A stretch of DNA of 64,000 nt, taken from contig NW_025964334.1 of assembly GCF_023055435.1 (NCBI RefSeq), positions 57,846,001 to 57,910,000 of the forward strand, given 5' to 3'. Below are positions 13,292-50,039 of this stretch, piece by piece (position 1 is the stretch's first letter; the number at the start of each line of letters is the position of its first letter). A program made the translations under genes and the position numbers. Below the pieces are notes generated by a model that saw only the letters and a program-made list of their open reading frames with translations, was not told the DNA's origin and searched no databases. Origin of the DNA: Haliotis rufescens (taxonomy: Eukaryota).

Positions 13292-13453
13292 GGGGGCGGT
13301 CGGGTAGCCTAGTGGTTAAAAGGTTCGCTCGTCACGCCGAAGACCCGGGTTCGATACCCGACATGGTCACAATGTGTGAATCCCATTTCTGGTGTCCCCC
13401 GTGATGTTGCTGGAATATTGCTAAAAGCGGCGTAAATCAAACTCACTCACTCA
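13292..13453 (+). mobile_element. SINE family C (about 160 bp, tRNA head, ACTC tail)
   Basis: A box TAGCCTAGTGG, B box GGTTCGATACC, tail gctggaatattgctaaaagcggcgtaa. Confidence 0.9.
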
Positions 13454-13820
13454 TGTACGGGGCTATTGATTCTACTTCCGGATTCCACATATTCTCATTA
13501 TTTCTCCATTACATAACCACTAGAGCTGCTTACATCAGTGATTGAGGGGAGAACGAAACTCTCTCCCTCACACTCAACACAATGTATAGATCTGACGGCT
13601 TGACCAGTGGTTCCACTGTCCAGTCTCCACGCCCAATACATATACGTCTACATGCGTCAAGTCGGTATAATTAAAGGGGCCTTGTGGGTTATTGGGGTAA
13701 TCGGGTATTGATACATGCATGGCTTCACATTGGGTCAGGAAACGGTTAAAGTTTGTGTTAACTACTCATAGACTTGCTGAAAATGCAATATAACTTGAGC
13801 CCTCCCCTTAATCTTCAGAG

Positions 13821-14088
13821 ACCCGTGAAGATTCGGGGTGGAATAGGTCTTCAGCAACCCACGCTTGCCGTAAAAGATGACTATGCTTGTTGTAAAAGGC
13901 GACTAACGGGATCGGGTGGTCAGGCTCGCTGACTTGGTTGATGCATGTCATATATCCCAATTGCGTGGATCGATGATCATGATTTCAATCACTGGATTGT
14001 CTGGTCCAGACTCGATTATTTACAGACCGCCGTCATACAGCTGTAATATTGCTGAGTGCGGCGTTAAACAACAAACCAAAACCAAAAC
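13821..14088 (+). mobile_element. Family B full-length copy
   Basis: ACCCGTGAAG...GCGGCGTTAAACAACAAACC; TSD cttaatcttcagag. Confidence 0.9.
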
Positions 14089-14279
14089 TTAATCTTCAGA
14101 GTGAATGTTTTAGTATTTCAGTATATCATTATCAGAGAGCATCCTATCTCCTGCCAGCTAAGGGACGCAACTCTGCGACGCCTCATCGTTCAGACACTTG
14201 TGTTTCCTCTAAACTTAAGAGCCCACAGTTTCAGGCCACAAATAAAACAACATTGCACAACATTATATGATAGTATTGT

Positions 14280-17838: not shown

Positions 17839-18006
17839 GAGTGAGTGAGTGAGTGAGTATGGTTTTACGCCGCTTTTAGCAATATTCCAGCAATATCACG
17901 GGGGAACCAGAAATGGGCTTCACACATTGTACCCATGTTGGGAATCGAACCCGGGTCTTCGGTGTGACGAGCGAACGCTTTAATCACTAGGCTACCGACC
18001 GCCCCT
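17839..18006 (-). mobile_element. SINE family C
   Basis: TSD taaagccaagag. Confidence 0.9.
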
Positions 18007-21256: not shown

Positions 21257-21420
21257 AGAGTGAGTGAGTATGGTTTTACGCCGCTGTTAGCAATATTCCA
21301 GCAATGTCACGGCGGGGACACCAGAAATGGGCTTCACACATTGTACCCATGTTGGGAATCGAACCCAGGTCTTCGGCGTGATAAGCGAACGCTTTAACAA
21401 CTAGGCTACCCGAACTCCCC
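21257..21420 (-). mobile_element. SINE family C (further partial or degraded copies at about 22456-22595, 24540-24632, 28910-29060, 48862-48965, 48992-49084, 51736-51798, 56243-56340)
   Basis: Homology among copies. Confidence 0.88.
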
Positions 21421-22800: not shown

Positions 22801-24961
22801 CATGTTACGTATTGAAAGTGGAACTATTAATGACGACTAATGTAAAGGTCAGACAGTCACTGTGGTCGTACTCAAATATTTCCCCAAAATGATCATCACG
22901 TTATTGAAAGACACAAATGAACAAGGTAAAAGAACATCTAGCACGTCATGTTGGCTCCACAGAGCGATAAACACGAACAGCGTCTAAATGAACCAATAAT
23001 GGACATGAAGTTGAAAATATTCAATGTTATTTTCCATGAATGTAAAATGATTTCATTACAATAATATCCTTCCCTTTCAAATTAAAAACAAATAGAAAAT
23101 GAATCTCATCTGTAATAAACAGATAATTGCAAACAATTGTTACATTGTCCATGACAGCAATTAATAATTATGACAATATTAGAAAGGAGTAGGATACATA
23201 GCCATGCATACAACAAGAAATGGGTGGTTATAATGAGGGTCGCTCAACATTCTCTTGTTTTTTTGTCTAGTTGTCCCAGGAACACTAAAAGAGTTGTGTC
23301 TTAATTTTAGAGTTCATTAAGAGCATATTTAAAGATGTCTAAAAGTAATATATCACCATCAATGCTTCTGTGAGGATCATGTTGTAGATGGGGTATATGT
23401 AATAGCACAGACAAAGGGTTTCGACAGGGAGGTTATCGTATGCGAGTGTCGTACCTGTTACAATGACATCAGCTTGTAGTAATTTGATAGTTACTGAATC
23501 AAAAACATAAAAAACAGACAAAAGAATTTCTACCAATGTGTGAGGAATCAAGTGTTACTACTTCTGTGCACATATTAGTGTGTCCTGGACTGGTGGATAT
23601 AGAAGTTATCTACCAGTACATTGTCCAGGGCTGAAACCCACCATATCCATCGAGCCACTCTAACGGGTGGCATATATATAGGGCTACCGACGTTGTTAGC
23701 TGTTGAACAGCAGTGTGATGTACAGAGTGAGTGAGTGGCTTGGGTTTGATGCTGCTTTTCACAATAGAAGAAACAGGGTGGAGATAATAAGAGACTACCT
23801 CTTGGGAGCCAGCCTAGGCATTGCTCATGGCAAGCTGACACTCTATCCAGTATTCACTACACAATTACAATTGAAACAAAATTGCAAAGAAAGAATTCAA
23901 GATTTTTTTACTCCTTTGAATGTAACAAAACAATTCTCATCAACTTTTCACACACATTCTCAAAATCATTACAGCATGTTTTCATGATAATGGCCTGAAT
24001 CGGCCTGCTCCCAACTATCAGTCTGGATGAATATTCTACAGGTGGATCATGTCAAGCAGGGACCATACAACCAAGGTGATATATAATGTCAAACAAAATC
24101 CTCCTAGCTAGTAAATTACAGCAACACAAAAAAGCTTAAATCCAAGGATGCAAGAGGATGAAGGCTTAATGACATGCAGATATAAGTGAAGGAACACCAT
24201 AAACTAGTTCAGTGAACCCCCATTGTTTCAGTGAGTCCACAGTAGAACCATGTACAGCCAGAACAATAAATGCTTTCATTTTACAGACAAGTGCACTGGA
24301 AATTAAATTTAAACAAAATTAACAATGTTCTTTCTTTCTTGTTTGTAATTTCTAAAATAAACTCAGAGCTTTTCAGAAAACAATTCAGGCATGCTGCTAT
24401 TTTAGTGAGAATGAGACCAGGAAAATCTGTTCCAGAAGAAAACTAAACTTGTCTGGCCTTGCACAGTGATGGTTCTAGACAGAGAAGACTGTGATCTTGC
24501 ACTGCTTGCTGTTGGTGGGGTGGAAAGACACACTAGGGAGTACAGTTTTACGCCACTTTTAGCAATATTCCAGCATATCACAGCGGGCACCCCAGAAATG
24601 GGCTTCACACATTGTACCAGGATTCAAACCCAGAATCTGGTGTCCCCAAGGGATGCAACTCCACATAGCGAATAGCAGCGTCTTGGACTGGTCCACCTGT
24701 GCCCCTTATAAACCAAGCAAGATGGTACAAGTAGCATACTTCAGACACATAAAAAAACTTGAAGCATTCAAGTATATCCTGAATAAAGTCCTACTTTTCC
24801 AGCCAGTGTATCATCTGACACTCTTCTGAATACATTTAAACAGAACTGAATTATAGGCAATAGAAAGAAGATATCATAGGGGTAACGCTATTTTTCGCGA
24901 CATTATCATTTGCAGAAGCCCGAGGTCTTCCATTAACTGCCTGACGAAGGAGCTACCGTTA

Positions 24962-47752: not shown

Positions 47753-47859
47753 GGACATATGTTGAAGGGCTGCTGTTACCGGTTTTTATAGTAAATCTAC
47801 TACTGCGTGGTTCAGTATAATTCACTGGCTATTCAAAAAGAAACGCACAGGTAGTATGT

Positions 47860-48116
47860 TTTGGTTTGGTTCTTTGTTTTGCGCCGCACTCAGCAATATT
47901 CCAGCTATATGACGGCGGTCTGTAAATGACCGAGTCAGGACCAGACAATCCAGTGATTGAGCATCGATCCAAGCAGATGGGATCGATGGCATACTTCAAC
48001 CAAGGCAGCGAGCCTGACCTCCCGATCCCGCTAGTCGCCTCTTACGGCAAGCATAGTCGCCTTTTACGGCAAGCATGGGTTGCTGAAGACCTATTCTACC
48101 CCGGATCTTCACGTGT
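47860..48116 (-). mobile_element. Family B full length
   Basis: TSD caggtagtatgt. Confidence 0.9.
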
Positions 48117-48459
48117 CAGGTAGTATGTAGTTCATTGAACCTGACTACACACAAAATCCGGTATATAAATTGGATATATGTTATTGAAAAATGTAGGCGG
48201 CCTGATATTCGACAAACGGTGCGTCAAAACGCATCCATTGTCGATTTGCAATGTTTTAAACGGCATTGTTTTCACACTTGTTCAAAATCTTTTTTGAAGA
48301 GTGTATGTAACAGTTTCTGGGTAAACCTTTGCGTTTCAATTTGGAAATGACCTTTCAGCATCTCCCACGCAACAGAACTACGTGAGTATAATGTTGGACG
48401 TATTAATACGTCAGTCTGTGCTTCCCACCTAGATAGATGCGTCCACCGCCAAAAGTTAG

Positions 48460-48724
48460 GTTGTTGGTTTGTTGTTTAACGCTGCACTCAGCAATATTCC
48501 AGCTATATGACGGCTGTCTGTAAATAATCTAGTCTGGACCAAACAATCCAGTGATTAATATCATGAGCATCGATCCACGCAATTGGGATCGATGACATGC
48601 ATCAACCAAGTCAGCGAGCCTGACCACCCGATCCCGTTAGTCGCCTTTTACGACAAGCATAGTCACCTTTTACGGCAAGCATAGGTTGCTGAAGACCTAT
48701 TCTACCCCGGAATCTTCACTGGTC
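48460..48724 (-). mobile_element. Family B full length
   Basis: TSD ccaaaagttaggt. Confidence 0.9.
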
Positions 48725-49789
48725 CCAAAAGTTAGGTACAGTTATCTCAAAGACAACCAGAACCTTTCCGACAGAGACAGATATCAGGTTCGCAGATCCA
48801 AGAATCTGCCCTAACAATTTTCCCAACGGACTAGAGTTTGACACAATCCTCGGACACAGTGTTATCTCGTTCCGCCGAAGGCCTGGGTTCCATTCCATAC
48901 ATAGTACGATGTACAAAGCCCCCATTTCCGGTGTTCTCCGACGTCATATTGCTGGAAAACTGATAAGAGAATTCTCATTCAAATCAGAGTTAGTGAGTGA
49001 GTATTGTTTTACGCCGCTTTAAGCAATATTCCAGCAATATCACGGCGGGTGACACCAGAAATGGACTTCACATATTGTACCCATCATTCAAATCAGATCT
49101 TAGTTCTTGCTGCCTCTACACAAAGTTCTAAGGACATCCCATTACTGGTCACGTTTACCCGTTGTGTGAAAGTCATGTTGGGAAAGGTCAAGGTCGACTT
49201 CCAACGTCGTCGGACGATTAAGGTCGACCAGACTGGCAAGTCCTAGTCCTTATGAGAATTTTCATTTTTGACCTTAAATGCGACCTTGAGCACAACACTT
49301 CGGTGTCTTGGCCACATTTCCGACCAAATATCAAAATTGTCTGACGGGTCTCAGACCTTGCCAAACGAAGTTTTAGATTACTTGGACGGCTCTAAGATGC
49401 TTGTATACTGGTTTTTGTCGCCCCCAAAACGCCGCGTGAAAAAGGTGGGAAAGATCAAAACTTTATCGGAGGGTCAAGGTCGACACGCTTGGTGAGTTTC
49501 AAGTCGTTATGACAATATTCATTTCTTACCTTAAATGCGACCTTGAGCACAACACAACTGGCCCCCTAACCCATCGTGAAAAAGATGGCAAAGGTCAAAG
49601 TTCGACTGTTAATGTGGTGGGAGGGTCAAGGCCGACCCGCCTGTCGAGTTCAAGTCTTTTTTTTAATTCATTTTTTTTTATTCACTTCAAGAGTGGTTAC
49701 ATGGCAAGATAAACATCTTTGGTAGACAATAAACATTTGTGGTACAGACGTCAAGTGTTGGCAAAAGATGTACATTCCTGGTATTATTG

Positions 49790-50039
49790 TTGGTTGGTTG
49801 GTTGGTTTGTTGTTTAACGCAGCACTCAGCAATATTCCAGCTATATGACGGCGGTCTGTAAATAATCGAGTCTGGACCAGACAATCCAGTGATTAATATC
49901 ATGAGCATCGATTCACGCAATTGGGATCGATGACATGCATCAACCAAGTCAGCGAGCCTGACCACCTGATCCCGTTAGTCGCCTTTTACGACAGGCATGG
50001 GTTGCTGAAGATCTATTCTACCCCGGATCTTCACAGGTC
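49790..50039 (-). mobile_element. Family B full length
   Basis: TSD ctggtattattgt. Confidence 0.9.

Follow-up and report, generated by a model that had tools for sequence, protein, structure and literature searches.

In 2016 Matetovici reported on LP-SINEs, retroposons of 255 bp from Haliotis, Ostrea, Saccostrea and Littorina, whose head of about 70 bp matches the 5′ ends of Nimb-17_LMi, I-3_DR and RTE-9_CPB (PMC4758252). The head was proposed to be a promoter, with Pr77 given as the analogy, and the partner LINE was called unidentified; in the parts consulted, the paper makes this proposal without an RNA structure, viral homologues or an upstream HDV-like ribozyme. Other non-LTR elements have their 5′ ends defined by HDV-like ribozymes, for which the sections consulted of PMC5786205 name six clades (R1, R2, R4, RTE, Ingi, LOA), Nimb not being among them. 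Beyond the HDV-like cases the exact 5′ ends of promoterless retroelements are an open question.

RNA 5′ ends are also set by xrRNAs, barriers to 5′-3′ exoribonucleases, which in viruses lie in 3′ UTRs, often in tandem, the flaviviral ones with a pseudoknot to the 5′ end (PMC8374639). The classes considered here (flavivirus 1a, 1b and 2, tombus/luteo, coremin) have either a three-way junction with PK1/PK2 or a 4-bp YGAD hairpin plus spacer, according to the parts consulted of PMC8374639 and PMC10520033. As that review put it in 2021, xrRNAs in cellular RNAs were still to be found (PMC8374639).

The retroposon at 13820–14087 (forward strand) of the window, a 64-kb stretch of the Haliotis rufescens genome, is a real element: it is full length, starts with the letter G (G1) and lies between 13-bp TSDs (13807–13819, repeated at 14088–14100; 14 bp if the next G, which is shared, is counted). 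A sequence-only reading of the window had given it a fixed edge at 13821; the edge is indeed fixed, but the coordinate is 13820. TSDs were found around all four copies named in that reading (13821, 48116, 48724 and 50039), the three sister copies being on the reverse strand at 47858–48117, 48456–48724 and 49794–50039, the last with a single hairpin and taken as family representative in the covariation tests. The estimate of about 14 copies was close: the window search gave 22 matches, 15 with head or body, two with tail alone and five that are tails of a different, tRNA-headed SINE; domain 1 of the head was matched 11 times at E ≤ 2. The tRNA-headed SINE (13396–13440, 17862–17904, 21273–21415, 24545–24586 and 49004–49048) has the same LINE-like 3′ hairpin and ends in ACTC repeats, as do LINE families A and B (see below). 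Between 12511 and 13108 a head fragment, an inverted full copy and a forward copy are clustered head to head, and in L013, L028 and L332 SINE copies are nested in other SINE copies, several at an identical body site. As had been claimed, there is no B box within 13820–14087, nor does the element contain an Rfam RNA gene, which does not fit a classical Pol III SINE with a tRNA, 5S or 7SL head.

The first 70–90 nt of the element are predicted to fold into a knotted RNA. It begins with GACCC (13820–13824), the 5′ strand of S1, predicted to pair with the G-run in the loop (13835–13839) as an H-type pseudoknot. Stem A (5′ strand 13827–13833, 3′ strand 13846–13852) starts 7 nt after the element boundary, and the loop continues with an A-rich conserved segment (13840–13845), AGAAUA in most families and GGAAUA here. 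There follow the 5′ strand of P2, CCC (13858–13860), upstream of the conserved hairpin a degenerate second copy of it (13867–13881), due to a 22-nt tandem duplication seen in 40 of 50 sampled SINE copies, the conserved hairpin itself, GUCG-UANRAGG-CGAC plus UAA (13889–13906, with one C>U change in this copy), and GGG (13908–13910), the predicted P2 3′ strand, where by duplex permutation and alignment the shared module ends. The SINE-specific body (13911–14027) had no credible LINE-derived match among 8 LINE stretches; it includes the GUCAG/CUGAC hairpin (13919–13933) of the sequence-only reading, which does form in the MFE fold but is outside the shared module. By shuffle-tested alignment the tail (14028–14068) is a homologue of the 3′ end that I-group (Nimb-type) LINEs have in this genome, and it is followed by a (CAAA/CCAA)n terminal repeat (14069–14087). 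On the reverse strand, at 13993–14022, a piRNA-like antisense small RNA of about 30 nt that starts with U dominates the reads of a related species; in three miRNA-seq runs of one study on another species, 116 and 144 reads were placed on the element, only 1–2 of them at the head.

The family is already published: judged by its sequence, the element is very likely the LP-SINE that Matetovici reported from Haliotis. In size and head it agrees with Hdi_LP/Hmi_LP (255 bp), and both have no tRNA head, a length of about 255 bp, TSDs, a CAAA-type tail and AATAT near the end (PMC4758252). The TSDs are variable and the tail is a short tandem repeat; the module lies 5′ of an I-group LINE ORF1, and the head is homologous to the Nimb 5′ domain of about 70 bp, core and stem being shared with the scallop ‘Nimb-17 homology’ region. 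The scallop head (Fig. S2 of PMC4758252) has, by eye, the same 17-nt core and AGAA loop, with compensatory differences within stem A. The start sequence of the head was absent from the supplement text searched (PMC4758252). We infer the identity with Hdi_LP, because the comparison was made without the Haliotis consensus (Fig. 3 of PMC4758252).

In the genome (1.33 Gb) the first 18 bases of the head have 16,132 exact matches, and the claim of a fixed 5′ end holds beyond the window: 26 of the 30 best genome copies start at G1. Among 59 sampled headed copies, 50 had a detectable tail and 32 of these a TSD of 10–16 bp, which in 28 of the 32 ends within 1 nt of G1; since the samples were chosen for having the head, the counts measure precision of the boundary and not the rate of truncation. 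Nine of 30 heads without a detected tail were arrays, truncations or diverged SINEs. Three of 30 pattern-picked heads (L292, L313 and L320, each from position 1501) are tandem arrays of domain 1 alone with a unit of 44–52 bp.

For the fold of the head, 24 family representatives, hand-picked after clustering with degenerate single copies dropped, were aligned with MAFFT from sequence only. Across these families covariation is strong in stem A and modest in the pseudoknot that joins the 5′ end to the loop. Stem A, paired as GAAGAUC/GGUCUUC in the sequence-only reading, has two-sided changes in all seven pairs, with 90.4% of the cells paired; S1, which involves the 5′-most nucleotides, is 78% paired and has two-sided changes at two of four pairs, clearly compensatory at one (columns 6/21: C-G in 17 and G-C in 4 of the 24 families). 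A model of S1, stem A and hairpin pairs 84.9% of the cells and reaches a covariation of 0.427 versus 0.145 for shuffled alignments (0/500) and at most 0.13 for slid controls. Register-free duplex permutation gave z values of −10.2 for stem A, −3.3 for P2 and −2.3 for S1 (−0.8 for S1 in retroelements alone), all inflated by relatedness among the families. The pair types over the 24 families include 19 G-U versus 2 A-C, which points to the sense RNA as the selected form. With a 2-nt first loop, a 7-bp second stem and an A-rich third loop, the strands follow one another as they do in classical H-type pseudoknots.

The sequence-only reading was right to see in the head a structured RNA that derives from the 5′ end of a LINE, but two of its pairings have no support in the covariation across families. 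Its pseudoknot of the loop with CAACCC gave a z of −1.0 across families, and its closing stem CCCGU/ACGGG, which does appear in the MFE fold of the SINE alone, gave +0.5; together they pair 46.4% of the cells and were equalled on covariation by 93 of 500 shuffles, in a test weakened by register variation. A better fit comes from the predicted 5′-end/loop pseudoknot together with a CCC/GGG stem that encloses the hairpin. All 24 families, a set mostly selected on the GUCG hairpin, have that hairpin unchanged, and it was kept in 59 of 60 LINE heads picked by domain 1, with loop variants that fit U-A-N-R-A-G-G, a pattern which we take to be reminiscent of a T-loop. By folding energy alone this copy was not better than shuffles (z +0.62 and +1.76).

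The head is shared with LINEs of the same genome. A genome search with a bivalve LINE ORF1 gave 30 loci, 28 of them with an upstream core match (up to 4 mismatches); two of the 28 are SINE insertions, leaving 26 LINE heads at about 560–640 nt before the ORF1 match. The partner-type LINEs, with a Zn-knuckle ORF1 and an APE-RT-RNase H ORF2, fall by their domains in the I-group and probably in the Nimb clade. Family B (37 exact copies) starts at the head, with U-CCCC in 27 of 30. Family A, the main I-group LINE family of the genome with 877 exact heads versus the 37 of ribozyme-less family B, starts 59–60 nt earlier with a canonical HDV-like sequence, separate from the module and upstream of it, that has P1 from G1, P3 with a UCCUCGU loop, GG for P1.1, a CUAA junction and P2 (28.5 bits and E 0.066 against Rfam RF02682, gathering score 44). 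All 30 sampled family-A copies begin at the HDV G1, their flanks being unrelated, in two full-length copies G1 is also where the TSD stops, and 834 of the 877 exact heads are directly preceded by P2′, the last strand of the ribozyme; copies that start at the head were 0 of the 30 sampled and are at most 43 of the 877. Behind the ribozyme the heads keep structure-preserving variants. The abundant young I-group (Nimb-type) LINE (L228-L230, L232-L240, L242-L245, L247-L283, L286-L289, L291) has a minimal HDV-like start of 58 nt with almost no P4.

The SINE head itself has no known ribozyme core, in agreement with the sequence-only reading. The HDV nested double pseudoknot (P1-P2-P3/L3-P1.1-J4/2) was matched by none of 59 SINE copies and none of 30 family-B copies, and by 29 of 30 family-A 5′ ends with the same descriptor; the hammerhead core CUGANGA ... 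GAAA was likewise found in 0 of 59 SINE copies. No Rfam model of twister, pistol, hatchet or other ribozymes matched, permuted forms being such as would escape the models. At the gathering threshold an Rfam search of the window returned one tRNA only; searched at E-value, neither the element nor any of 7 viral and 20 retroelement loci gave a relevant family. A permuted HDV core was set aside on the family-A argument (see below), and RNase P processing of a tRNA mimic for want of a covarying acceptor-like closing stem.

The tail of the SINE was compared with LINE 3′ termini of the same genome, and six of six beat the best of 200 shuffles, three narrowly; a bivalve LINE end did not rise above shuffles. 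Because the terminal repeats of the sampled LINEs are ACTC and those of the SINE CAAA/CCAA, the true mobilising LINE is, by this sequence comparison, likely a sister family of those sampled. A LINE with both a CAAA tail and this head variant was not found in this genome.

The head module is common to 18 retroelement lineages and 8 viral contigs. The 17-nt core was found at 9 viral loci, 7 of them with the whole module; of three relaxed scans, one gave 43 loci with the same 7 only, one 19 loci with none new and one 16 loci with L382 as new. By Pfam the viral contigs other than L382 are toti-like, tombus/noda-like and tetra-like, L041 having an S-domain capsid match only. In five RNA-virus contigs the module is on the sense strand and starts 4, 9, 20, 72 and 99 nt past the last stop codon; L041 and L382 have two copies in tandem. 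A DNA-virus contig of 212,482 bp, which we take to be invertebrate iridescent virus 6, has the module about 150 nt before an ORF. A domain-1 covariance model built from 18 retroelement rows, without the search 17-mer, found the viral sites at E ≤ 0.007 in five of the eight contigs and matched the other three weakly, these E-values being rough. In the toti-like L059 a second hairpin with a similar loop is close to the 3′ end.

Metagenomes contain at least 122 loci with at least 123 cores, 97 with the AGAA loop upstream among the matches listed; the loci look like several animal retroelement families. At one of them (L118:401-492), a metagenome retroelement, two heads stand directly in tandem. 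GTDB gave 13 matches: four without the module, one cut at a contig edge and eight in animal-type repeats or LINE ORFs; five of these genomes searched again had one copy each. A genuine bacterial occurrence was rejected, the matches sitting in animal-type DNA and being read as contamination or chimeras. This DNA includes a complete I-group LINE that carries the head at the 5′ end, and heads upstream of 5′ UTRs that from their motifs we presume to be RTE-type; the module is at the front of other short retroelements as well. The animal retroelements inside GTDB bacterial assemblies (L221/L223, L218-L220, L222) are likely contamination or chimeric contig ends. In one RTE-type element (L212:390-430) an apparent long hairpin is inserted in the third loop of the pseudoknot, where HDV has P4.

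We propose, with a probability of about one half, that the head is an xrRNA-like barrier to 5′-3′ exoribonucleases that would set the 5′ end of the element. The analogy is drawn from viral modules that are in 3′ UTRs, in tandem and with a pseudoknot to the 5′ end, as in the xrRNAs of the parts consulted of PMC8374639. The likenesses are the start in the 3′ UTR, tandem copies, a patchy distribution across families (PMC8374639, PMC10520033) and a pseudoknot with the 5′-most nucleotides, which in the module is predicted (PMC8374639). The module differs from these viral xrRNAs in sequence and, by eye, in lacking their three-way junction or YGAD hairpin (PMC8374639, PMC10520033), and unlike them it is at the 5′ ends of retroelements. 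Copies of the element would be transcribed by read-through from host promoters, Xrn1/Xrn2 would trim the upstream RNA and stall about 7 nt before stem A, and the ORF2 protein of an I-group LINE would bind the SINE tail and reverse-transcribe to the stalled end. Where an upstream ribozyme is present, it would make the end first and the barrier would never be reached; in viral copies a 3′ subgenomic RNA would result from the same block. For the invariant hairpin, docking on the pseudoknot or binding of a host factor is the probable role. More tentatively, and with odds somewhat below even, the module may represent a new xrRNA class with tens of thousands of copies in animal genomes, by which host decay would carve the 5′ ends of promoterless SINEs and LINEs from read-through transcripts, and which would have moved between retrotransposons, several RNA-virus families and a large DNA virus.

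What favours the barrier is above all family A. A cutter or a promoter at the edge of the head would remove the ribozyme, whereas a barrier would not, and a passive barrier fits the pattern because the outermost protected point becomes the end. Since family A keeps the HDV-like sequence, intact in 30 of 30 sampled copies, its head would neither cut nor start transcription at its own edge, where the edge overlaps the P2 helix of the ribozyme and a cleavage site could be masked; the self-cleaving head and the internal promoter of the sequence-only reading are thereby both disfavoured. That the head is a self-cleaving ribozyme of a new class, with its cut at the first S1 pair, appears quite unlikely. 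Such a ribozyme would account for a boundary that coincides with this pair, as HDV cleavage coincides with P1, for a domain 1 with the P1/P2 strand order of the HDV-like ribozymes of non-LTR elements (PMC5786205) without P3/L3, and for many near-invariant unpaired positions, and ribozymes do exist in linear RNA viruses (PMC13725137, in the part consulted). This reading is at odds with the adjacent tandem heads in L118, with viral modules whose cleavage would sever the 3′ end, with a varying first nucleotide and with the absence of the P3/L3/P1.1/J4-2 core or any other known core (0/59). Families without the ribozyme start 7 nt ahead of stem A, though not with one and the same letter: the SINE has G, LINE B has U. 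The U speaks against both a cap-derived G and a purine start by Pol II. An internal RNA polymerase II promoter from a LINE 5′ UTR, possibly dual like Pr77, is proposed in section 10 of PMC4758252 and would agree with heads at both LINE and SINE 5′ ends and with the G start of the SINE, as a cap-derived G would give; we hold it to be the least probable reading, because a promoter cannot explain conservation in RNA viruses, which have no DNA stage, because compensatory pairs and the G-U bias indicate selection at the RNA level, and because the head is not where family A starts and LINE B starts with U.

The barrier has evidence against it too. The predicted fold matches none of the xrRNA classes compared (no three-way junction, no coremin), the covariation of S1 is modest, family A has no direct footprint of stalling at the head (0/30), a mechanical block does not explain the near-invariant hairpin, and the SINE's own MFE fold prefers a competing 5′/3′ closing stem. 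Linear RNA viruses, moreover, tolerate slow ribozymes, mostly reported in 5′ UTRs so far (PMC13725137, in the part consulted). A rival reading is a non-cutting RNA that recruits the translation machinery or another host factor (like a viral 3′-CITE, or docking ribosomes in the SINE) and whose fixed 5′ end is a by-product of a compact fold or another process; a translation- or RT-recruiting RNA, which the sequence-only reading also offered, stays a candidate. Such an RNA would explain why family A retains the module when a ribozyme already makes the end, why it lies about 150 nt before a DNA-virus ORF and 550–640 nt before the LINE ORF1 matches, and why the hairpin is so often duplicated in SINE copies; tombus-like 3′ UTRs house cap-independent translation enhancers (PMC10520033, in the part consulted). 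Recruitment alone leaves unexplained a boundary kept within 1 nt in ribozyme-less families, and the SINE is non-coding; as the sole function we consider it unlikely, somewhat less so than a self-cleaving head. As a second role of domain 2 it is compatible with the barrier.

Two other structured RNAs invite comparison. The Chilo iridescent virus-derived ribozyme differs from the module in sequence (PMC6265322, in the part consulted). Like the module, the s2m element is a short RNA with a defined structure that lies near viral 3′ ends, has a scattered distribution over families and back-to-back copies, and is present in invertebrate genomes too; its sequence and fold are unrelated, and for insect s2m no retro-origin was found in the parts consulted, whereas the module heads retrotransposons (bioRxiv 10.1101/2020.06.29.177030). 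The core motif as text had no occurrence in the literature searched, and the searches found no prior description of a structured, virus-shared module or of a LINE with ribozyme plus head, nor of the module as a structure, for which subscription papers, figures or Repbase are possible places.

Whatever its function, the covarying module accounts for the 70-bp domain that had no explanation in 2016 and indicates an I-group partner of the LP-SINEs. Its three natural contexts, the head alone, ribozyme plus head and the viral 3′ UTR, make the proposal testable with one gel. If the head blocks Xrn1, retroelements would have a third means of obtaining a 5′ end, next to promoter and ribozyme, and the head would be a cellular xrRNA and a mobile module common to transposons and viruses.
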